From Minisyncoccota bacterium (GTDB lineage: Bacteria; Patescibacteriota; Minisyncoccia; JAHIHE01; JAGLIN01), in NCBI GenBank assembly GCA_023137595.1, contig JAGLOZ010000002.1, positions 1 through 63,358 of the forward strand: 63,358 nt of DNA, in the 5' to 3' direction. Positions 2,532 to 61,301 of the stretch are shown here, piece by piece. The notes under the pieces are model-generated. The model ran no database searches. It was not told where the DNA came from and saw nothing but the letters and a program-made list of their open reading frames with translations. Each line of letters opens with the position of its first letter. The first letter of the stretch is position 1. The position numbers were made by a program, and so were the translations under genes.

Positions 2532-3506
2532 CTATAATTTTCCCGCGCGTCTTCGTGCCTCATTCAGTTCATTGTTCGAAAATTCTGCTGATCGTGCTGA
2601 TGCTTCTGCGTAATCATAGGGATCGCATTTGAAAGGACCTTTTAGATATGCACCAGAAATTCCTCGAGATGAATTAACAATTCCAAAGCCATCATTATTA
2701 ACTCCGGCAACAGCTGCATCTGCCCCACCTCCTTGTCCAGCGCCATATCCAGGTATCAAAAACAAGACTTTTTCACCCAGAATTTGACGCATAATACCGG
2801 CATCTTCGGGATATGTTGCTCCCATTACAACACCAATATTACTATAACCAAATTCACCTTCCGTTCCCTTTCCCCAGCTAAGAGCGAGTTTAGCAAGACC
2901 TTGCCAGACTGTAGTTCCGTCAGAGAGTTTCATCTGCTCAATTTCAGAATTTGGATCAAAGGATGTCTTATCAACAATAAAAATTCCTTTACCATATTCT
3001 TTTATTACTTTTACAAATTCACTTATACAGGAAGATCCAATATAGCCATGAACCGTCATTGCGTCTAAATTGAAAGATGGAACTTTTACAACCTTTCTTA
3101 TATTTCCGTCCCACTTTTCTACCAGTCCAAGGTGGCCTTCTGCGTATGCCTTGGCTGTTGCTCCTCCGTCGCCACGTTTAGCGTCTTCAATGACGATAAA
3201 ACCAACTTCCTCGCATATCCTTTTGGTTTCTTCAAATGCCCAAACGCCCCATGCACCATACTTTTCATAAAAAGCCATCTGTGGTTTTGCAAAAGTTGCA
3301 AACGGGACTGAAGACTTTGCTATTGCGGTATTAAAAATAACAATAGCTCTGGCAATTGGCTCAAATCCTGTTTTGTTTTTTGCCTGTTCCCAGCCTTCTT
3401 GAAGTATATGCTCTGGTATGTGTTTTAATTGAGGATCAAGTCCTACACACAAAACACTGCCTTTTTCTCTTATATGTTTTATTGCTTTATCTGAAAATGT
3501 TTTCAT
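2532..3506 (-). CDS. pyrF: orotidine 5'-phosphate decarboxylase, type 2
   Basis: LCVGLDP and EDAKRGDGG motifs. SD is GGAAGGTGA. Confidence 0.85.
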   Translation of the reverse strand: MKTFSDKAIKHIREKGSVLCVGLDPQLKHIPEHILQEGWEQAKNKTGFEPIARAIVIFNTAIAKSSVPFATFAKPQMAFYEKYGAWGVWAFEETKRICEEVGFIVIEDAKRGDGGATAKAYAEGHLGLVEKWDGNIRKVVKVPSFNLDAMTVHGYIGSSCISEFVKVIKEYGKGIFIVDKTSFDPNSEIEQMKLSDGTTVWQGLAKLALSWGKGTEGEFGYSNIGVVMGATYPEDAGIMRQILGEKVLFLIPGYGAGQGGGADAAVAGVNNDGFGIVNSSRGISGAYLKGPFKCDPYDYAEASARSAEFSNNELNEARRRAGKL

Positions 3507-6662: not shown

Positions 6663-6869
6663 AGTGATAAATATTAACAAATAAAAATACTCTTCCGAGA
6701 AATCAAAGAGTTACGGCCCGTAAATAAATAACCTCCACAATTTCACCTCAGCTTCACACCATCTTGGTTTGAAAAAACTTTCAATATATAGCAATATCTT
6801 TCAATTTTTTTCAAAGCAATCTGGGATAAATCTGAGCGAACTCGAGAATATTGTTTATTTACGGAACCT

Positions 6870-7861: not shown

Positions 7862-8001
7862 AGCAGTTTAGTGTAAATATCAAAAGATATTTATGCAAGC
7901 AAGTGGGAACGAAATAAAATTTCATCACGACTTCCAAAAACCTCCTACAAAAAACCCACTTGCGCTTTTTACTTTTCATTGCCGCTTGAAGCGGTTTTTT
8001 T
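7862..8001 (+). ncRNA. candidate small RNA (unknown class)
   Basis: Promoter TTGACA (7827-7832), 17-nt spacer, TAGAGT (7850-7855). Stem GCAAGTGGG/CCCACTTGC encloses a loop containing CCTCC. It ends in the strong terminator GCCGCTTGAAGCGGTTTTTTT (7981-8001). There is no plausible ORF and no downstream plus-strand gene. Confidence 0.3.
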
Positions 8002-13800: not shown

Positions 13801-14025
13801 GGACGCAAAGCATGAATTGGAGTTCTTACGAAAGTAAGTAGGAGCGCAAGATTTTGCGTTCACTTACGAAAGTAAGTAGGAACGCAAGATTTTGCGTTCA
13901 CACGTAAAATTAGCGAATTTCAAAAAAATTGTGACATTTCTTCCTGACTGAAGTTTACGCTGAATCCATTCGGCAAGCTCAGAACAAGCTTATTTCGGTA
14001 TCAAGATTCCGTTGTATTCAAATTC
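13801..14025. repeat. intergenic repeat family B (copy 1, with an internal 38-nt tandem duplication)
   Basis: Shares gacgcaaag..ggagt, acgcaa.attttgcgtt and gaatttcaaaa.aattgtga.atttcttcctgact blocks with 31921-32067, 34307-34455, 41559-41709 and 49111-49306. The unit cttacgaaagtaagtagga.cgcaagattttgcgttca occurs twice. Confidence 0.75.
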
Positions 14026-16261: not shown

Positions 16262-16416
16262 AAATTCCGGATCATACACGATTTAACCTATTTAATAATT
16301 AGAACTTTCTTGTTTTTGTCATTCTGAACTTGTTTCAGAATGACAGGTTTTTAAGAATAGTGAAATAGAGCGAAAAAAATTAAACTAGGGTTAAATTGCG
16401 CATGATCCGAAATTCC
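16262..16416. mobile_element. short MITE-like element (family A relative)
   Basis: About 29-bp terminal inverted repeats, aaattccggatcatacacgatttaaccta / tagggttaaattgcgcatgatccgaaattcc. The central hairpin is tgtcattctgaa-cttgtt-tcagaatgaca. Confidence 0.65.
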
Positions 16417-22066: not shown

Positions 22067-23023
22067 TTATTCCTCTTTATTCATATTTCGATTTTTTAAT
22101 AAATATGCAGGGAACAAATACAGTAAAGTATGAGCGACAAAAACAAAGACAGAAATAAAAACAAGAACTGGAAGCTGCTTATAAATTTCTTCCATAAAGA
22201 TAATCGCCAAGAAGAAAAAGTGAAGGAAAATTAATATCAAATAAGGTAAAAGATCAACTTCAGCAGATATCCTATTCCTGTTTTTATAAAGTTCTTTTAT
22301 TAGATACAAAACAAGCAAAAAAACCATGCCGAATAGAATGTATGCTTTCGCGCTTTGGACTTCAGGATAATAAGCATAACTATAATCATGCTTATTATAA
22401 AGAGCCATAACTTCATTCAGCGTAAATTTTCCAGAAACAACAGCTGACAAAACAGTATAGCTAATTATTTGAAAAGCCAGTAAAAATGGTGAAATGATCA
22501 CAGAGGAATATTTTATTGCTTTAGACAATTTTTTGCTCAAAAAATTCTGCCTGCTTAGATTTATAAAAAATGAAAATGTCCAGATAACCGCCAGCCAGCC
22601 AAAAAGATTGTCATAAGGAACTCCAAACCATTCCTCGTTGAACGGGATTTGCCAACTCCAAAATCCAAGGCGTATGGCGACAACATCAACAACAAGATCA
22701 ATGCTCAGAGCTATCAAGGACATAAATAGCGGAATTTGCCACCATTTCAGATCATAATTTTGCGCGCTTTTATGTGAAATATAATAAATGACAGCCCATC
22801 CCAGGCCGATGGCAAGCGGCACATTATAGATCTGAACCATAAATTCTTTTCCATAAGAATATAGCCCCGACATATGAACATTAAGAACTTCTAATATAAT
22901 TCCATATAAAACAGCGAGTATCAGAGTTTCCAAAAGATCTCTGTTTTTTCGCTCCTCAAAAAGTATAGCTAAAATCGCGAATATTGCGCCAAATTCAAAG
23001 ATGTAAAAATAGAAATCATTCAT
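22067..23023 (-). CDS. polytopic membrane protein, function unknown
   Basis: ORF track. 8-9 TM helices. A family D palindrome lies 74-115 nt upstream. Confidence 0.55.
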   Translation of the reverse strand: MNDFYFYIFEFGAIFAILAILFEERKNRDLLETLILAVLYGIILEVLNVHMSGLYSYGKEFMVQIYNVPLAIGLGWAVIYYISHKSAQNYDLKWWQIPLFMSLIALSIDLVVDVVAIRLGFWSWQIPFNEEWFGVPYDNLFGWLAVIWTFSFFINLSRQNFLSKKLSKAIKYSSVIISPFLLAFQIISYTVLSAVVSGKFTLNEVMALYNKHDYSYAYYPEVQSAKAYILFGMVFLLVLYLIKELYKNRNRISAEVDLLPYLILIFLHFFFLAIIFMEEIYKQLPVLVFISVFVFVAHTLLYLFPAYLLKNRNMNKEE

Positions 23024-23096
23024 GTTTATAAATTGTTTTTCCTCTTTTAAAAGAAGATGATCTTAAGTTCAAATATTAAAATTCCTTATTAATAAG

Positions 23097-23138
23097 TTAT
23101 AGCCTCTTTCCATGCGGCCGCATGGAAAGACACTATAA
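23097..23138. repeat. family D palindrome (core TCTTTCCATGCGGCCGCATGGAAAGA)
   Basis: Perfect 26-bp palindrome centred on GCGGCCGC, with TTATAG/CTATAA outer arms. Same core as 40070-40117 and 40699-40752. Confidence 0.8.
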
Positions 23139-27000: not shown

Positions 27001-27306
27001 ATGCGAAATTTAACCCTAACATAACTTCTTCACTTTAACTCGCCTGCAAAAATTTGTCATCCTGAATTTATTTCAGGATCTTTGTTGTTTTAGGTTTTAA
27101 CTTATTACTATTCAACACTATACTTTCATCTACAATACAAATACAATTATCTTTCTATAATAACACAACCATTGTATTTTTAATTTATTCAAGAGTTCTG
27201 TGATTTATGGATTTTATTAAATGTAAAAGAAAATAGATCCTGAAACAAATTCAGGATGACAAACAGCAAAAGTTTTTGTTATTGATACATAGTTAAATTG
27301 CACATA
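27001..27306. mobile_element. MITE-like element, family A
   Basis: Inner TIRs tgtcatcctgaatttatttcaggatc / gatcctgaaacaaattcaggatgaca (27055-27261). Outer TIRs atgcgaaatttaaccct / tagttaaattgcacat. The conserved interior is aacactatactttcat.tacaa...tgatttatgga. Confidence 0.75.
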
Positions 27307-31575: not shown

Positions 31576-31920
31576 TCTAGCGCCTCTCTGGTTCGGTGTC
31601 TTCCTTATTGATTCAGCGTCTCTGACCTGAACTTTTTTTTACATCATCTTTCGGAATTTATCACTGAACTAAATTCAGCGCAAGCTCTTCAGGGTTTCAT
31701 TTTTGATTTGCGACAACCTTGAAGCCATCAAAGGGTAAATTTCTATTTTGATCCTACTATTTTATTCTGCGCGAGAACAAGATTGTCCCGAGTAGTCGGG
31801 ATTTCTTTTGTTTTGAAATTTCATCTATTGCTGTTCCCTATAACAATAATCCTCGCTCTATGATTTTCTAATCTATTTTCCTGTCTCCAACAAACAAATG
31901 TATTCTTGTTAATTTAATGT

Positions 31921-32067
31921 ATAGGAATTCCAATATCACGGAATCCTGACGAGAGTCAGGAAGAAGCATCACAATTCTTTTGAAATTCACTAATCTTTCT
32001 TATGAACGCAAAATCTTGCGTTCCTACTCACTTTCGTGAGGACTCCAATTCGCGTTTTGCGTATGCG
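31921..32067. repeat. intergenic repeat family B (inverted orientation)
   Basis: ataggaatt...cctgacgagagtcaggaagaag.atcacaattcttttgaaattc...acgcaaaatcttgcgtt...gaggactcc. Confidence 0.75.
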
Positions 32068-34306: not shown

Positions 34307-34455
34307 CAAAGACGCAAAGCGCAGATCGGAGTCCTCATGAGAGTGAGTAGAAACGCAAAATTTTGCGTTCATAAAAAAGATTAGCGAATTTCAAAAGAAT
34401 TGTGATATTTCTTCCTGACTCTCATCAGGATTCCATGAGATTAAAATTCCTATGC
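34307..34455. repeat. intergenic repeat family B
   Basis: caaagacgcaaagcgcagatcggagtcctc...acgcaaaattttgcgtt...gaatttcaaaagaattgtgatatttcttcctgact...aaaattcctatgc. Confidence 0.75.
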
Positions 34456-34481
34456 TTTTAATTATTTTCATCCAAACACAC

Positions 34482-37527: not shown

Positions 37528-38082
37528 TCATTGATTGTCTGAATTAGCATTAATTTTTTTCCAGTTATATTTTTCTGCCAGCTCCAGATGAATTTGCCGA
37601 ACCTTCTCAATAAGAATACCGTTATTTTCATGTTTATGATTCTTTTCTATAGAACTGGTAAATCTTTCTCCGTCGAATAAAATTGCTAAATCTTCTTTAT
37701 AAATAAAGGAGTATAGATACTCAAGTATTTCTCTGTCAACTCCCGCTCCAGCGCCTCAAGCCACCGCCGTACCAACATAATTCTCTGCAATAATATTGCT
37801 TCCATCGTTTAGTTTGTTTTTTAAAATCGGCTCAAAAGCAACGCGGTCAGTATAATGTAATAACTGCAACTCGCGCGGGCTAAAATTATTTGGATTGCCG
37901 GCTCTTAAATATTCATTGATTAATTTTCCGGCTGGTTTCAAATCGTAAATCGGATATTTTAAATACTCCGCTTTTATATTTTTTCTACTCAAATAATCCA
38001 CTAACATTTTCGCTTGCGTGGTTTTTCCTAAATTATTTACTCCATATAAAACAATAAGTTTTCCTTTAGATTTATTTTTCAT
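37528..38082 (-). pseudogene. tmk: thymidylate kinase interrupted by one in-frame TGA (37756-37758)
   Basis: P-loop LYGVNNLGKTTQ. The reading frame continues unchanged after the TGA: ...NYVGTAVA[TGA]GAGAGVDREILEYL... for 75 more codons. Combined length is 184 aa. Confidence 0.75.
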
Positions 38083-38388: not shown

Positions 38389-39843
38389 TTATAATTTTAA
38401 TTCTTCGTCTTGTTTATATTTAATTCCTCGTTTTATCGCCATTTCCGCTTTTTGCAGTTCCGCGCCTAGATCAAACGCGTGAGAAATTTCTGATACCGCG
38501 TCTGCTAATAATAATTTTCTATACATTGAAACAGACGCTTTTTCTTCTGTTCCATTTTGGTGAAATTCCTGTATATATTCGCCTTTTGGCGTATAGTGTT
38601 TTACTATAATATCTTTATTTTCTACGCTGATCATAAAATATCCTCTTGGATCAGTTGCTTCAAATTTTATTTGATTTCCATATTTTTTTACTATTCCTTC
38701 CGCTGTTTGCCATTCATTATCATAGATATGCGAACAATTTGAAAAGATCGTTAGCGTTCCCATTTTTTTTGAAAGCTTGTCCGCTATGTGCTTTTGAACC
38801 GTTCTAAGTCCAAAAGCATTTAAAACCCATCCGGAAAAAATGGCGTGGCTTCTGAAATACGCGGTTAAATTCAACTCATCGCCCAGCGCTGTCGCCTGAA
38901 CTTGAGTCATGCAAGGCGCTCTTTCAGCTTTATGATCGTTTGTCAGATCAAACATCATCGCGATTGCCGCTCTGTCGGTAGGATATTTTTTCAAATAAGG
39001 TATCATCACATCCTCAACTTGATTTATTCCCTTGTAATTCCAAAGTCTTTCTCCATAAGTATAAACTTCATCGCCCTTTTTACCGCTCATTATGTTGGCA
39101 GAATATTTTTCGATATCTTCTTTGCTTACCTGCATAAAAGGAAACATTTTAGGATCTAGCGGATCTTCCTCGGTAACTACTGCCGCGATATTAAAAAGTT
39201 CTTTCACATTTCCGCCGTACCATGTCGGATTTTCAATTCCAAATTTCAAGATCTTTTTCAAGATCTGCAGCCAGACGTTGCCGATATACTTGCCCCTGAC
39301 TTTGAAAACTGATTGATCGGTTGGAAATATTTTTACCTCTTCCTTCTTTGCGTCTGAAAAAACTTGAGGCTCGGAAAACGGCTTGCCGATCGATTTATGG
39401 TCGCTTATTTTCTTCTTTATTTCATTTATATCCTGAACGCCTATTAAATTTTCCAATTTAACATTCTCACGGATTAGAGCTAAAGACTCCTTTGGAATTT
39501 CTTTATGTATTTTAGCAAAATCATTGCCAATAACCAGAAAGTCATCATCAATTCCTTTTTCAAAAAAATCCACAAGCACTTTTCCGCTTCCGGAAAGTTC
39601 TGTCCCACAGACGATCAAATATCTGACTGAAGGCTTGGCAAGAATATTTCTGATTATGAAATTTATTCCCTCTTTTGAATAAAGCTGTCCCGCGACACAA
39701 AAAGAATCAGGATCCAATTCATCCGTAATTTTTTTTGTCGGTGTCCAAAGAGTCGCGATCACTATTTCACTATCAGGATTTCCCAACACCAAATTCTCAT
39801 TTGAACAAACCGGCCAATTTGTTTTTTTGTCACATTTTGACAT
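38389..39843 (-). CDS. thyA: thymidylate synthase (ThyA family), three-domain form: MtrA-like N-domain + ThyA + DUF4346-like C-domain
   Basis: The ThyA core shows ERAPCMTQVQ...YFRSHAIFSGWVLNAFGL...SHIYDNEW. The C-terminal motif is SHAFDLGAELQKAEMA. Confidence 0.75.
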   Translation of the reverse strand: MSKCDKKTNWPVCSNENLVLGNPDSEIVIATLWTPTKKITDELDPDSFCVAGQLYSKEGINFIIRNILAKPSVRYLIVCGTELSGSGKVLVDFFEKGIDDDFLVIGNDFAKIHKEIPKESLALIRENVKLENLIGVQDINEIKKKISDHKSIGKPFSEPQVFSDAKKEEVKIFPTDQSVFKVRGKYIGNVWLQILKKILKFGIENPTWYGGNVKELFNIAAVVTEEDPLDPKMFPFMQVSKEDIEKYSANIMSGKKGDEVYTYGERLWNYKGINQVEDVMIPYLKKYPTDRAAIAMMFDLTNDHKAERAPCMTQVQATALGDELNLTAYFRSHAIFSGWVLNAFGLRTVQKHIADKLSKKMGTLTIFSNCSHIYDNEWQTAEGIVKKYGNQIKFEATDPRGYFMISVENKDIIVKHYTPKGEYIQEFHQNGTEEKASVSMYRKLLLADAVSEISHAFDLGAELQKAEMAIKRGIKYKQDEELKL

Positions 39844-39934
39844 TGCTATATCTATTTTTTATTATTACTATATTCTTATTATATTATTATATCTTCTCCC
39901 ACTTTTATCTGTTTTCATTTATTAGTTTTATAAT

Positions 39935-39957
39935 ACCCCGCTCGCTTGCGACGGGGT
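39935..39957. terminator. GC-rich hairpin ACCCCG-ctcgcttgcga-CGGGGT
   Basis: Lies between the 40115 gene and thyA. Confidence 0.4.
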
Positions 39958-40069
39958 CCCAAGCTGTACAATTAATATGTAAACACTAAACTAAAATTTA
40001 GAGTTCATTGAATCTGTGAATAAGGGAAAGAGTTTAGGGCTTGCACTGAGGTTTAATACCTTTTATTTC

Positions 40070-40117
40070 TAGCCATAGCATCTTTCCATGCGGCCGCATG
40101 GAAAGATGCTATGGCTA
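40070..40117. repeat. family D perfect 48-bp palindrome (NotI-centred), overlapping the stop codon of the 40115 gene
   Basis: tAGCCATAGCATCTTTCCATGCGGCCGCATGGAAAGATGCTATGGCTa, symmetric about 40093/40094. Confidence 0.9.
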
Positions 40118-40639
40118 TATTTCCTCTATTAGAAATAATTTTACATATGAATCAATAGAATGTTTCCTTAAAATAAATTCAGTCTCTTTTTGAACATCAT
40201 AAGGACAAATCCAGATGCTTTGTTGAAGCATTTTATATTTCAGAAGAATAAGTTTTTCTCGCAACAAATTTCTCAAGTATCTTTTTTCTTCAGGAATATC
40301 AAAAATTATCATTTGCCATTTTTTGTCAGGTCTTTTTTTATTATCTTTTATTTTAAGTCTTGCTTTTAGAACTTTTTCTGCTCCTTTTTTGGTTAAAAGA
40401 ATTCCTTCATTTTGTTCTAAATTTTTAATCTTAATATAACCATTTTTCTTTAGATGATAAACTAGTTGAGTAAATTGCTGTTTTGTTTGTTTTTTTCTAT
40501 ACTGATTCTTTAATTCATAAAGAGACGGATAGCAATATTCTTTCATTTTTCTATACGAAAAAACAGTAAAGGTGTTGTCTAATTTCTCAGCATAGCTACA
40601 GACATCTAATAAAAATTTTTCAGTAATCGGAAGTTTCAT
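40115..40639 (-). CDS. wHTH regulator with a PaaX-type (Cas2-like) C-terminal domain
   Basis: N-terminal winged-helix-like segment (QLVYHLKKNGYIKI). C-terminal KKWQMIIFDIPEEKRYLRNLLREKLILLKYKMLQQSIWICPYD matches the W-x-iv-FDIPE...SvW.P pattern of PaaX-family/Cas2-like domains. Confidence 0.6.
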   Translation of the reverse strand: MKLPITEKFLLDVCSYAEKLDNTFTVFSYRKMKEYCYPSLYELKNQYRKKQTKQQFTQLVYHLKKNGYIKIKNLEQNEGILLTKKGAEKVLKARLKIKDNKKRPDKKWQMIIFDIPEEKRYLRNLLREKLILLKYKMLQQSIWICPYDVQKETEFILRKHSIDSYVKLFLIEEI

Positions 40640-40698
40640 TGTGATAATAATTTATTTAATTTTTTAAATCATATAACTTTATTATACACTAGTTCTTG

Positions 40699-40752
40699 AT
40701 ATAGCCATAGCATCTTTCCATGCGGCCGCATGGAAAGATGCTATGGCTATAT
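40699..40752. repeat. family D perfect 54-bp palindrome, 60-113 nt upstream of the 40115-40639 gene
   Basis: atATAGCCATAGCATCTTTCCATGCGGCCGCATGGAAAGATGCTATGGCTATat, symmetric about 40725/40726. A TATAAT box lies about 15-17 nt downstream (gene sense) of its edge. Confidence 0.9.
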
Positions 40753-40848
40753 TTTCATAATCTATCAGTCAAAAGCTACAACGAGTTGTCTAATAGTTAT
40801 AATAAAAAATTATAAATAGTTATTATAAATACGATAAATATTTAGAGT

Positions 40849-41355
40849 TTAATTTCCACCTTTGATCCACCTTTCAATTCTCGGAATAGTGTCTATAAAA
40901 TTTTTGTGTACTTTTATATTTTTCTCAATTATTTCATTCGGTTTTATCCAGATATATTCTTCCACGTCATATTTCCTTTCTGTCTCATCTTCTGATCTTT
41001 TTAACTCTATTTTTTGTCCATCTGGGAATTTTCCGATATATGTTACTATTGGAATAAAAATTTTATTTTCTTTATAAGGATTATCCCCTTCCGCATACGA
41101 AATTCTGACATCAAGCAGTTCTGCGTTATTTTTTTCAATACTGATCCCGACTTCTTCTTCGGTTTCTCTGATCGCGGCATCAATAAATTGCTCTTTTTTG
41201 CCATAATCAACCTCCCCGCCCGGAACGGTCCAGATATCATAACTATTCCTTTCTTTCGCCAGAAGAATTTCGCCTTTGTTATTTACCAACACCAAAGAAC
41301 CGACAAAATATGCCGCTTGAACCGGGAATTCTAGGTCTTTTTGATTCTTTTTCAT
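40849..41355 (-). CDS. NUDIX hydrolase
   Basis: Nudix box GGEVDYGKKEQFIDAAIRETEEEVGI. Confidence 0.8.
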   Translation of the reverse strand: MKKNQKDLEFPVQAAYFVGSLVLVNNKGEILLAKERNSYDIWTVPGGEVDYGKKEQFIDAAIRETEEEVGISIEKNNAELLDVRISYAEGDNPYKENKIFIPIVTYIGKFPDGQKIELKRSEDETERKYDVEEYIWIKPNEIIEKNIKVHKNFIDTIPRIERWIKGGN

Positions 41356-41394: not shown

Positions 41395-41859
41395 TGTCAT
41401 TCTGAACTTGTTTCAGAATCTTTTACATGTTAGGTTTTAATTTTCGCTATTTAACGCCATATTTTCATTTACAGTAATTCTAGGTTTTCTTGATTAGTTT
41501 TCATTTGTTTGAGCTAGATTTTAAAAATAAATTTGGTCTTTGATATATACATGAAATACAAGCAGACATCGTGCAAACTGGAGTCCTCGCGAGAGCGAGG
41601 ATGAAATTTCGCAAGATTATTGAATTTCAAAAGAAATATGATATTTCTCCCTGACTGGAATTTATGAATTCAGTTCAGTATCGGGACTTCTTAGTATTAA
41701 AATTCCTTAATAATAATCTATTTTTAATTACAAACAACCGTTTCATCCTAAGCTTGTTTCAATATTTTCGCTGATTTCACGTAATACTATCTAAATGTAA
41801 AATACCGTAGATTCTGAAACAAAGCCTGTGCTGAATTTAGTTCAGTATTCAGAATGACA
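41395..41859. mobile_element. MITE-like element family A with a nested family B insertion
   Basis: Ends tgtcattctgaacttgtttcagaatc / ttcagtattcagaatgaca. The interior has ctatttaacgccatattttcatttacag. A family B copy lies at 41559-41709. Confidence 0.7.
41559..41709. repeat. intergenic repeat family B, nested inside the family A element
   Basis: cagacatcgtgcaaactggagtcctcgcgagagcgagg...gaatttcaaaagaaatatgatatttctccctgact...aaaattcctta. Confidence 0.7.
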
Positions 41860-41994
41860 AATTGGCGCACATCTTCACATCTCTACTAAATCTACCACAT
41901 TTATTGATCTTTTTCAAATAAATAAAGAGATATTGATATTAAAGATACTTGTGTTAAATTAAATACAACATAAAAAAATTTGGGAGAGAAATCA

Positions 41995-44482: not shown

Positions 44483-44687
44483 TGTCATCCTGAATCCATT
44501 CGACTACCGCTCAGAACAAGCTTATTTCAGGATCTTTTGTAATTTAGGTCTGATCTATTCTATTTAACACTATACTTTCATTTACAACGCACACACAGAT
44601 TATATTAATTTATTCAAACGCTTTGATAATTTATGGATTTGATTAGATGTAAGAGAAAATAGATTCTGAACTAAATTCAGAATGACA
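44483..44687. mobile_element. MITE-like element, family A
   Basis: tgtcatcctgaatccattcgactaccgctcagaacaagcttatttcaggatc ... agattctgaactaaattcagaatgaca. The conserved interior is aacactatactttcatttacaacgca... Confidence 0.75.
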
Positions 44688-44740
44688 TCAACGTGTTTTA
44701 TTAGCTCTAATGCTCTAAAAAGCTAATAATAATCTTATTG

Positions 44741-46508: not shown

Positions 46509-46688
46509 TGTCATCCTAAACTTGTTCCAGAATCTTTTGACTGCATGGACCAGCCTCTATCCAACACTGACCTTTTGCATACAATGTAGCCAATGTTTGG
46601 ATGATTTATGGCTTATGACCAACGTAATATACAGTGGATTCTGAAATAAGCTTGTTCTGAGCGGTAGTCAAATGGATTCAGAATGACA
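46509..46688. mobile_element. MITE-like element, family A
   Basis: tgtcatcctaaacttgttccagaatc ... ggattctgaaataagcttgttctgagcggtagtcaaatggattcagaatgaca. Confidence 0.7.
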
Positions 46689-46694
46689 AAATTT

Positions 46695-49110: not shown

Positions 49111-49306
49111 CAAAGACATAGACACTTTCGCATATTTTGGAGTCCTCGCACTGGACTAAATTCAGCATAAACTCCAGCAAGAATGAAGCTTCACAGGATA
49201 AACGCGTTTCAAAATAATTGTGATCCCTCTTCCTGACTAGAGTCTATATTGAATTCAGCTCAGTATTAGGACTCCGCAATGTCCAAATTCCTATGCTTTG
49301 AATTAA
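49111..49306. repeat. intergenic repeat family B (between secE and nusG)
   Basis: caaagacatagac...ttggagtcctcgc...caaaataattgtgatccctcttcctgact...aaattcctatgc. Confidence 0.7.
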
Positions 49307-50853: not shown

Positions 50854-51777
50854 TCAAATCCACCTTTTACTTTTTATCACTACAAAAAATAACATAGACA
50901 ATAAGACTATAACCACGACCACAAACAAAAACGCAAAAGGATTTCCTTCTAAGGGCAATGCGACATTCATTCCGAAAATACTGGAAACAATTGTTGGAAT
51001 AGTCAGGAAGATAGTAACAAAAGTCAGAATTTTCATAATTTTATTAAGTTCATTCGTAAGAATTGCAGAATATGCTTCACGAATATTTTTAATTGATCTT
51101 GAGCCGGCCCTGGAAAGCTCCATGGTCTGATTGCTGTCCATCACAAGATCTTCCATGATATCTCTGTCTTTTTCATAGATCGTAATATAGCGGCCGCTAA
51201 GAATCTTTTCTAAAATATTTATTGCCGGAAATAATGAAGAAACAAAATTATTCAGTGATTCTTCTTCCTGGACTAAAAACAAAATGTCTTTATTCTCCAG
51301 GTTGCCGATTTTTATTTTCTTTGATTTTATGTCTTTTAAAATTCTATTTAAATACAGATCATAACTGCCAAAAATTTCCAGAATAATTTTCAGAAGAAAA
51401 TTTGTTTTGTGCGTGGTGCAAAAATCACTGTTGCTTATCAGAAAACTATCCGTGATCTTGTTTTTTGTTCTGCATAAAGTTATTATATTATCTTTAGTTA
51501 TCACAACCAAAATCGGCGTAGTTATAATATCAGCATCTTTTTCAATCGGAAATCTCATAATCATATAAAAATTACCAGCCTTATCCGTTTCTATTCTGGA
51601 AATTTCATTTTCATCCAGTCCATCTTCAAGAATTGTAAAATCAAGATCCAAAGACTTCGCAAGCGATCTTATTTCCTCTTCGCCTGGTTCCAAGACTGAA
51701 ATCCAACTGCCTCTTTCTATTTCCTTTACCTTTTTCAATCGCAGATCATTTAGTTTTTTTCTATATATATTGATCAT
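50854..51777 (-). CDS. corA: magnesium/cobalt transporter CorA
   Basis: IFGMNV (GMN) motif before the last TM helix. Confidence 0.85.
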   Translation of the reverse strand: MINIYRKKLNDLRLKKVKEIERGSWISVLEPGEEEIRSLAKSLDLDFTILEDGLDENEISRIETDKAGNFYMIMRFPIEKDADIITTPILVVITKDNIITLCRTKNKITDSFLISNSDFCTTHKTNFLLKIILEIFGSYDLYLNRILKDIKSKKIKIGNLENKDILFLVQEEESLNNFVSSLFPAINILEKILSGRYITIYEKDRDIMEDLVMDSNQTMELSRAGSRSIKNIREAYSAILTNELNKIMKILTFVTIFLTIPTIVSSIFGMNVALPLEGNPFAFLFVVVVIVLLSMLFFVVIKSKRWI

Positions 51778-54589: not shown

Positions 54590-54823
54590 TGTCGTTCTAA
54601 GCGTCGTTCTGAACCTGTCTGCTGATAGGCAGGCTTGTTTCAGAATCATTATTATTTTAGGTCTGATTTATACTATATTAACACCACACTTTCATTTACA
54701 GCGCAAACACAATTATTTTTTATAATACAGCTATTGTATTATAAATTCGTTCAAAAGTTTAGTGATTTATAGGTTTGATCAAATGCAAAATACAATAGAT
54801 TCTGAACTGAATTCAGAATGACA
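54590..54823. mobile_element. MITE-like element, family A
   Basis: gtcgttctgaacctgtctgctgataggcaggcttgtttcagaatc ... agattctgaactgaattcagaatgaca. The conserved interior is aacaccacactttcatttacagcgca. Confidence 0.75.
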
Positions 54824-54850
54824 TCAACGCATCCTGATAATTCAAATGTT

Positions 54851-61009: not shown

Positions 61010-61236
61010 TGTCATTCTGAATCCATTCAGTAAACCCAGGACAAGCTTAGTTCAGAATCTATTATGTATTAGATTTCAATCTATCCTGTTTATATTAACT
61101 TTCACCTAAACTATAAATACAACTATTTCTTGTATGAATATTGTAATTGTGTTTTCGTTCCAATCAAAATGTTTGATGATTTATTGAATAAATTAGTGTA
61201 ATAATTGAAAGATTCTGAACTAAATTCAGAATGACA
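61010..61236. mobile_element. MITE-like element, family A
   Basis: tgtcattctgaatccattcagtaaacccaggacaagcttagttcagaatc ... agattctgaactaaattcagaatgaca. Confidence 0.75.
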
Positions 61237-61301
61237 CCTACGCATCAACCTATGAATAACTCAGCAAATCCTGGTTTCTTGTCCCTAATTAAATTAATTT
61301 T

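Follow-up and report, generated by a model that had tools for sequence, protein, structure and literature searches.

PaaX is the phenylacetyl-CoA-responsive regulator of E. coli and Pseudomonas (PDB 8a39, 3l09), in which a winged-helix N-terminus is joined to a Cas2-like central dimerisation domain. The E. coli protein recognises an inverted repeat of 39 bp, TGATTC-N27-GAATCA, and shuts down its own promoter by standing in the way of RNA polymerase (steric hindrance; PMC9493321). Here we have analysed a stretch of 63,358 nt from a Minisyncoccota bacterium (contig JAGLOZ010000002.1), hereafter the window, in which a gene for a 174-residue protein stands between two long perfect palindromes. The protein appears to have the same domain order as the N-terminal and central parts of PaaX, and we call it mini-PaaX; the geometry of its gene is consistent with binding and self-repression of the PaaX kind. 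It differs in its size (174 compared with ~305–316 residues, without the PaaX_C domain), in having no paa genes nearby, in a site that is palindromic over its whole 42–54 bp with a second copy at the stop codon, and in belonging to an inserted cassette whose palindromes are dispersed. The best-supported reading is that mini-PaaX and its palindrome form a cognate pair, as suggested by conserved bracketing, paralog specificity, fixed promoter geometry and insertion. That the whole is an autoregulated cassette, bound by its own product and derived by insertion, has in our estimate an about even chance (roughly 0.5).

The arrangement invites comparison with the REP/REPIN-RAYT systems (repetitive extragenic palindromes and their associated tyrosine transposases; Nunvar 2010, PMC2817692; Bertels & Rainey 2011, PMC3116915). 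In both, the gene is present once, is inherited vertically and stands between two cognate palindromes that co-evolve with it; each paralog has its own palindrome family, and further copies are dispersed in intergenic DNA. In contrast to the RAYTs, mini-PaaX is not an IS200/IS605-type tyrosine (HUH) transposase and it evolves slowly. Its palindromes are perfect, longer and in one case coupled to a promoter, and their copies apparently number from units to tens (three in the window) rather than more than 100.

Three other kinds of element bear comparison. Insertion sequences (IS) with terminal inverted repeats likewise have a promoter element at one repeat, the end of the open reading frame (ORF) inside the other, and empty sites in relatives; the mini-PaaX cassette differs in having no transposase and no near-identical copies, and in that each ‘terminal repeat’ is a full palindrome. 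CRISPR Cas2 shares the ferredoxin-like beta-alpha-beta-beta-alpha-beta fold, a (Y/F)DI motif, weak profile matches and Foldseek matches, while mini-PaaX scores below threshold, has a probable winged helix fused to the domain and lies in a window with no CRISPR array. Finally, the Rickettsia palindromic elements (RPE), reportedly described by Ogata et al. in 2000, are said to lie in frame inside conserved housekeeping genes. They are 100–150 bp in length, and we know of no cognate protein for them. The mini-PaaX class of palindrome is similarly found in frame in QueA, MurF and MiaA of other metagenomic genomes; unlike this, all three copies in the window are intergenic, and in QueA and MurF the net change in length is only ~5 residues against solved homologs. 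Full-text searches found no literature linking PaaX-like proteins to Cas2, palindromes or the candidate phyla radiation (CPR).

Palindromes in the window

The perfect palindromes of 54 and 48 bp lie on the two sides of the 174-residue gene, where the initial annotation had placed them (Table 1). Since the gene (40115–40639) runs on the minus strand, the 54-bp copy (40699–40752) is the upstream one and the 48-bp copy (40070–40117) is that at the stop codon; the overlap with the stop had been seen correctly. Both are centred on the NotI-type site GCGGCCGC, and 53 nt are identical between them. The 26-nt core TCTTTCCATGCGGCCGCATGGAAAGA has three exact occurrences in the window (at 23105, 40081 and 40713), with zero expected from 100 shuffles. 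The third copy was also rightly reported: it is a palindrome of 42 bp with two broken pairs, standing alone 74–115 nt upstream of a membrane-protein ORF. The site GCGGCCGC had been said to occur three times, always in this context. There are in fact four in the window (G+C ~0.33) against 0.19 expected, and the fourth, at 51190, falls within a 12-nt palindrome, TAGCGGCCGCTA (51186–51197), inside ORF 50854–51777 and is unrelated to the palindrome family. The same palindrome–gene structure is present in L002, assembled independently from another sample, and so an assembly artefact can be ruled out. An Rfam scan of the window returned three tRNAs only, with no known RNA family at the palindromes.

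Bracketing throughout the family

Is the bracketing a property of the family? We surveyed 80 loci from GTDB species representatives, counting flanks as shared where at least 14 nt, with at most one mismatch, were common to the upstream and downstream sides. Of the 39 close family loci 30 have shared flanks, and of the 31 distant ones 12 do, compared with 9 of 278 other genes of the same loci. What the flanks share is in nearly every case a long palindrome. The core varies with lineage, being GCGGCCGC, ACGGCCGT, ACGATCGT, GCGATCGC, AAGCTT, CAATTG, CAGCTG, AACGTT or TGATCA.

Cores also differ between paralogs within one genome, and yet the two flanks of each gene agree. The metagenome-assembled genome (MAG) of the window has a second mini-PaaX, P0062 (contig L212), which is 71% identical and lies between the genes for a prepilin peptidase and LigA. 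It is bracketed by CTGACGAYCGTCAG palindromes (...CTGACGA(C/T)CGTCAG...), whereas those around the window gene are of the type that we designate A; none of the P0062 type is present in the window. Paralog-specific cores are likewise seen in L007 compared with L016, L003 with L020, and L017 with L028. Such paralogs are 60–75% identical, and the window has a single copy. Paralog-specific cores would not fit generic terminators or generic REPs.

The mini-PaaX protein

The product had been described as a winged-helix protein with a PaaX/Cas2-like domain, and this is right for the domain and probably so for the winged helix. The identical protein is on record from a Candidatus Pacebacteria MAG (Patescibacteria/CPR), on a contig of 74 kb. 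The Pfam model PF20803 (PaaX_M) matches residues 102–170 with E = 9.9e-21 (74 bits, cut-off 24), and all 36 aligned family members match it as well. Pfam gives no PaaX_C match, the protein ending four residues past PaaX_M. The PaaX equivalog model TIGR02277 aligns residues 60–169 with its positions 41–149, scoring 33.3 bits against a cut-off of 264.55, and the winged-helix model DUF6293_C gives weak matches in 21 of the 36 members (best E = 0.003). An AlphaFold2 (AF2) model has a mean pLDDT (per-residue confidence) of 67.6; its C-terminal half is confident and has the order beta-alpha-beta-beta-alpha-beta. A structural comparison with PaaX, Cas2 and VapD had been suggested, and in Foldseek the top match is E. 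coli PaaX 8a39 (120 columns, E = 8e-4), followed by many Cas2 structures and VapD. There is no match to solved structures at the level of sequence.

Membership of CRISPR Cas2 was considered and rejected. The Cas2 models fall below threshold (PF09827, 15.6 against 23.8 bits; TIGR01573, 19.4 against 24.5), and the window has neither a CRISPR repeat family (Rfam) nor an array (tandem-repeat scan). No cas1 was detected among the annotated neighbours, annotation covering part of the window ORFs. Searches of Pfam, NCBIfam, PADLOC and PHROGs gave only PaaX_M and weak Cas2 matches; no known domain of a transposase or recombinase, whether HUH/Y1 or another, was among them. Residues D114 and E117 are invariant in the family alignment; the FDIPE motif would mark the position of the Cas2 metal-binding Asp.

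The family is large, with 2272 clusters (50% identity, E ≤ 1e-10), and nearly all members have 170–200 residues; identity is 60–93% over 120 clusters. Database labels for members read ‘hypothetical protein’, ‘PaaX’ or ‘Cas2’, and the homolog P0107 is recorded as Cas2. No paa genes are found among the neighbours, which are dCMP deaminase, NUDIX, a ThyA-like fusion, a Tmk-like ORF and dUTPase, and for the paralog prepilin peptidase and LigA.

Promoter and stop-codon register

The TATAAT box of the gene lies within the sequence GTGTATAAT. Its presence near the upstream copy had been noted, but the distance of 15–17 nt then given should be 12 nt, measured to the end of the palindrome; measured to its centre it is 39 nt. 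A simple sigma-70 scan did not list this box because there is no –35 match. Either GTGTATAAT or GTGTACAAT is found 36–40 nt from the palindrome centre in L003, L004, L005, L007, L008, L020, L209 and L212, and the GTGTATAAT box is conserved in close relatives irrespective of genomic context. A TATAAT-like box stands 34–41 nt past the centre in 14 of 32 upstream copies, compared with 2 of 32 on the mirror side. In a second and more distant class, represented by 6 of 32 upstream copies compared with 2 on the mirror side, the –10 box falls within the arm of the palindrome at an offset of 15; here the ATG is mostly within ~15 nt of the –10 box, which would suggest leaderless transcripts. With either geometry, a protein on the palindrome would be expected to cover core promoter elements.

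The downstream copy keeps a fixed distance from the stop codon. At ~15 orthologous loci its centre lies 14–15 nt past the stop, the stop itself (TAG or TAA) forming part of the outer TATAG/TATAA arm. The organisation is IS-like, with a promoter against one terminal repeat and a stop codon inside the other. On the distal side there is no preferred spacing to a –10 box of the next gene, and the distance to that gene varies (45 nt in L005, 226 nt in the window and ~190 nt in L212).

These observations bear on the idea that mini-PaaX is an ordinary transcription factor with a small regulon, in which the downstream copy would serve the next gene as its operator (the ThyA-like gene here, LigA in the case of the paralog) and the appearance of a cassette would be coincidental. 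The operator–promoter geometry at the gene and at the solo site would agree with this, as would the precedent of PaaX and the recurrence of the contexts NUDIX-X-ThyA-like and PilD-X-LigA. Against it, the downstream register is tied to the mini-PaaX stop and not to the variably placed next gene, whose –10 box has no preferred spacing from the palindrome. Moreover, as described below, the empty sites point to insertion into overlapping ORFs, the genes beside solo copies are functionally incoherent, and there are copies inside ORFs. We regard a plain regulon as very improbable.

An AATAAT hexamer resembling a –10 box (40134–40139, plus strand) lies 39–40 nt from the centre of the downstream palindrome, directed back into the gene in a mirror of the sense geometry. 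It is present at the equivalent position in 9 of 30 loci. Probably it is a by-product of the conserved KLFLIEE codons, although it might instead be an antisense promoter.

Insertion into tight gene junctions

In L005 and L209 the gene order is dCMP deaminase–NUDIX–[cassette]–ThyA-like–dUTPase. The initial annotation had proposed to ask whether the gene and its palindromes come and go as a unit. The whole cassette is absent from L203 (ThyA-like 76% identical) and from L204/L205 (65%), where the NUDIX and ThyA-like ORFs overlap by 8–14 nt. The ~1-kb segment 39844–40848 is therefore an insertion into the operon. Comparison shows that both the cassette and the solo palindrome have been placed by insertion into formerly tight gene junctions. 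A target-site duplication was looked for, but the only signal is a 7-nt TCTAAAT echo of the ThyA start after the NUDIX stop, which is not significant in AT-rich DNA, and we rejected it. Related mini-PaaX genes are found in at least two contexts that recur, NUDIX–ThyA-like and PilD–LigA, and these do not track the protein tree cleanly.

A mobile cassette delimited by the palindromes had also been suggested. The empty sites bear out its insertion, but we see no sign of current mobility: there are no near-identical gene copies and no transposase, and inheritance is vertical at the rate of the neighbours. Identities to L005 and L209 are 82 and 92% for mini-PaaX, 86 and 92% for the ThyA-like protein, and 82 and 83% for NUDIX, so that mini-PaaX evolves at the rate of the neighbouring genes. 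A phage or plasmid origin was rejected, there being no homolog in IMG/VR or PLSDB and the palindrome pattern occurring in only three viral contigs.

Some features of the surroundings may be recorded here. The ThyA-like gene (38389–39843) is a three-part fusion of MtrA-like, ThyA and pterin-binding DUF4346 parts, conserved across Patescibacteria. The thymidylate-kinase-like ORF (37756–38082) has 108 residues in the window, 64 in L209 and 234 in the cassette-free L203, and is absent from L005. A GC-rich hairpin, CCCCGCTCGCTTGCGACGGGG (39937–39957), lies between the cassette and the ThyA-like gene, and a similar hairpin, CCCCGTCCGCTTGCGGCGAGG, is found downstream of the paralogous cassette in the same MAG (L212, ~6700–6725).

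The solo palindrome

The solo copy stands between MnmA and a CarSyn-like polytopic membrane-protein gene. The similarity of its spacing to that at the mini-PaaX gene had been pointed out, and holds when the –10-like boxes are considered: its TAATAT is offset by the same 39 nt from the palindrome centre as is the box of the mini-PaaX promoter. The relatives present a range of states. L206 has the palindrome at the orthologous junction with four differences in 42 nt, closer by eye than the surrounding spacer, but the TAATAT is lost; in L208 the palindrome is degenerate and TAATAT is found at an offset of 38. L215 has no palindrome and a gap of only 3 nt between the MnmA and CarSyn-like genes, while L207 and L214 keep the flanks (AATATCG ... 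CTATAA) without the palindrome. L203 and L208 hint that palindromes may decay where the matching paralog is lost.

The synteny MnmA–CarSyn–Na/H exchanger is present in the relatives examined, except that the L214 locus has no exchanger gene. L208 is a mosaic, its CarSyn-like and Na/H exchanger proteins being 86–87% identical to those of the window, while across the palindrome MnmA, PBP2 and MreC are 54–69% identical. This suggests a possible recombination breakpoint at or near the palindrome. The MnmA–CarSyn junctions of L207 (9787–9990) and L214 (2815–2975) hold a different element, similar to a miniature inverted-repeat transposable element (MITE), with CTCCTCCCCTGATAAGGGGAGG inverted ends; it is seen also in L209 (4539–4558).

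Table 1. Positions in the window of the palindromes, the genes next to them and the promoter-like boxes.
Feature	Position	Strand	Basis or detail
Upstream copy, NotI centre, proposed operator over the –35 region	40699–40752	no strand	perfect palindrome, 54 bp
Downstream copy, outer arm = TAG stop (40115–40117)	40070–40117	no strand	perfect palindrome, 48 bp
Solo copy between MnmA and CarSyn-like genes	23097–23138	no strand	42 bp, 19/21 pairs, identical 26-bp core
mini-PaaX gene, 174 aa: winged-helix-like N-terminus and PaaX central Cas2-like domain, without C-terminal effector domain	40115–40639	–	Pfam, TIGR02277, AF2 model, Foldseek
TATAAT –10-like box within GTGTATAAT	40681–40686	–	39 nt from centre of 54-bp palindrome, 12 nt from its end
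Cassette segment: the gene with its promoter, a palindrome on either side, and another 226 nt of spacer	39844–40848	no strand	absent from outgroups; between NUDIX 40849–41355 and ThyA-like 38389–39843
TAATAT –10-like box	23073–23078	–	39 nt from solo palindrome centre
Polytopic membrane protein gene, candidate second target	22067–23023	–	Pfam PF04240 (Caroten_synth), E = 1e-16

Symmetry and concerted change

Outer-arm differences between the upstream and downstream copies of a locus are frequent, and each copy nonetheless remains palindromic; compensated differences number 27, at 20 loci. In the L209 ortholog (~93% identical) the upstream copy is a single compensated G:C to A:T change from that of the window. 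The downstream copy of the window is ~5 substitutions from that of L209, and these make the two window copies identical and convert a GAG codon to TAG. The protein has 174 rather than 176 residues because this change creates a stop two codons early. The downstream copy of the window is best explained as having been homogenised by gene conversion between the two copies, as the pattern of substitutions would indicate. A template-switch mutational bias, which perfects quasi-palindromes, could contribute to the perfection of the palindromes. Among copies with an asymmetric centre, the downstream is the reverse complement of the upstream in all three informative loci (L014, L062, L079); a consistent orientation was nevertheless rejected, as other loci do not fit and a chance of 1/8 is not significant.

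Might the palindromes act simply as hairpins, independently of the protein? They could be mRNA 3′-end stabilisers, RNase III sites, insulators or antisense terminators, in a cassette duplicated as a unit with its copies homogenised by gene conversion. The predicted hairpins are indeed very stable (–40 and –44 kcal/mol; z = –9.7 and –11.4), the compensated changes keep the arms paired, the window shows conversion-like homogenisation, and solo copies in metagenomes lie close to the upstream stop (see below). Both cassette copies also score as terminators on the plus (antisense) strand, while the scan flags the solo copy on neither. The sense strand, however, has no U-tract, and a sense-strand intrinsic terminator was rejected; the terminator-like hairpin that had been proposed for the downstream copy is thus not upheld. 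No signal of sense-RNA pairing is found, G:U-compatible mismatches in imperfect palindromes numbering 17 on the sense and 13 on the antisense strand, and the upstream copy precedes the –10 box and so lies outside the gene’s own transcript. Hairpin function would leave unexplained the paralog-specific cores in one genome, the fixed 39-nt promoter spacing and the ~25-fold commoner bracketing of this family compared with other genes. We judge it quite improbable.

The palindrome class in other genomes

A scan of JGI metagenomes for TTTYYYACGGCCGTRRRAAA gave at least 120 contigs, and among the matches listed 74 carry palindromes with arms of at least 13. The 22-mer core of the window itself has no exact match in the JGI metagenomes. 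Among the matches listed, a mini-PaaX gene adjoins ~11 of 75 sites with sufficient flank, which is far above chance for a gene occurring 1–3 times per genome; most sites are solo. By crude gene calls, solo sites are mostly between tandem genes near the upstream stop, at a median of ~19 nt. Again among the matches listed, one palindrome family is common to 3–4 contigs per metagenome (Ga0265316, Ga0066637, Ga0209515). In Ga0265316 a 36-mer flanking a mini-PaaX homolog (L181) is identical to one inside QueA (L089), with near-identical copies at L094 and L110 in contigs of similar G+C. A dispersed insertion element that has a cognate gene behaves in this way, as in REP/RAYT or the Rickettsia RPEs.

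Clustering of ORFs finds no recurrent neighbour family other than mini-PaaX itself. A regulon governed by a palindromic operator had been proposed, and the promoter geometry at the upstream and solo copies of the window supports that part of the proposal. A conserved regulon we have rejected, since the 20 genes facing solo palindromes in other genomes are unrelated and no neighbour family recurs.

A model for the cassette

We propose that mini-PaaX binds DNA as a dimer by means of a winged helix, that it dimerises through the Cas2-like domain known from PaaX, and that it dispenses with the ligand-binding C-terminal domain. The long palindrome would be its cognate binding site, occupied by a dimer: E. 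coli PaaX sets the precedent of an inverted repeat of 39 bp bound with autorepression, and TATAG-N30-CTATA spans 40 bp here. Palindrome, promoter, gene and palindrome would together form a self-contained unit. The upstream copy covers approximately –78 to –24 of the GTGTATAAT promoter, such that bound protein may occlude RNA polymerase and lead to autorepression. The downstream copy, in fixed register with the stop, would form the 3′ boundary, and might act as a second operator, by looping or as a roadblock; it might equally be a hairpin with a stabilising role or what is left of a terminal repeat. The solo copy would bring the membrane-protein gene under the same control through the same geometry. 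Copies within one genome may be kept alike by gene conversion, by the specificity of the protein, or by both.

Several observations weigh against this model. Autoregulation leaves the downstream copy, the most constant feature of the locus, unexplained, and palindromy maintained over 42–54 bp by compensated changes is more than a protein footprint alone requires. The Pfam model of the PaaX N-terminus matches neither the query nor the 36 family members, and in the AF2 model the N-terminal half, with helices and a beta-hairpin at 69–82, is of low confidence (pLDDT 44–67). In other genomes, 6 of 32 classified intergenic sites lie between convergent genes (crude gene calls), and 20 genes facing solo palindromes are functionally unrelated housekeeping genes, which fits a dispersed element better than a regulon. 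There are in addition in-frame copies inside QueA and MurF, where in each case two contigs have the copy at one and the same position, and inside MiaA (L089 1877–1912, L136 725–762, L163 ~7875–7914, L197 ~2991–3018 and L097 ~2886–2921); both MurF copies encode STFSTAVENV. A Wzy-like gene has an in-frame copy as well.

The last of these points lead to an alternative akin to REP/RAYT or RPE, where the palindromes would be non-autonomous insertion elements. Mini-PaaX would recognise them with the winged helix, and its Cas2 fold with an invariant Asp would serve to nick, mobilise or maintain them, any autoregulation being secondary. The gene is always between two co-evolving cognate palindromes, the defining arrangement of the RAYTs (PMC2817692), and the IS-like layout, with a promoter at one end and the stop inside the other, points the same way. 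So do the insertion of the cassette and solo copy into tight junctions, the Ga0265316 36-mer, identical in the mini-PaaX flank and in QueA and nearly so on two further contigs, and the copies elsewhere that stand between convergent genes or lie in frame within MurF and MiaA. Both D114 and E117 are invariant, and we presume the FDIPE Asp to be equivalent to that which binds metal in Cas2. That Asp, however, is also part of the PaaX_M signature, for which no nuclease activity is known, and no known transposase or recombinase domain, HUH/Y1 included, is found in the protein. Copy number is low (one solo copy in the 63 kb of the window), near-identical copies of the gene are lacking, and IMG/VR and PLSDB hold no phage or plasmid homologs. 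Unlike RAYTs, mini-PaaX is as slow as its neighbours (82–93% compared with 82–92% identity), and the solo site is stable at one junction in three genomes. We consider an element of this kind unlikely. The more specific proposal that a Cas2-fold protein with a fused winged helix is a dedicated nuclease, mobiliser or maintainer of long palindromic insertion elements in Patescibacteria is in our view a long shot.

Other repeats in the window

The genome holds several further families of intergenic repeat. A MITE-like family with inverted TGTCATTCTGAA(C/T) ends, ~170–230 nt in length, has at least six intergenic copies; its sites are 27055–27263, 44483–44690, 46509–46690, 54602–54825 and 61010–61238, and also 16317–16345 and 41395–41860. 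Another repeat, of ~150 nt, has copies 85–88% identical at 13803–13949, 31910–32062 (inverted) and 34312–34464, with fragments at 41613–41656 and 49195–49238. Within it are a 38-nt tandem duplication and a GAACGCAAnATTTTGCGTTC hairpin. Rfam has no match to it, and it may be a gene for a small RNA or a further mobile element.

Significance

The system brings together a PaaX-type DNA-binding protein, its long inverted-repeat site and an arrangement that resembles REP/RAYT. To our knowledge the Patescibacteria (CPR) have very few recognisable regulators, none with a defined binding site. Mini-PaaX is a family that extends through the phylum, and the flanks of each gene directly show what its DNA target probably is, paralogs serving as natural specificity variants. 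It thus provides a testable protein–DNA code in organisms that cannot be cultured. The tight-junction insertions and the in-frame copies in essential genes of other genomes are a record of a binding site or selfish palindrome spreading in reduced genomes. If it is true that the Cas2-like domain acts on the palindromes, this would be a new kind of REP/RAYT-like system with a different enzyme, and a free-living Cas2-like domain would be coupled to palindromic repeats outside CRISPR.

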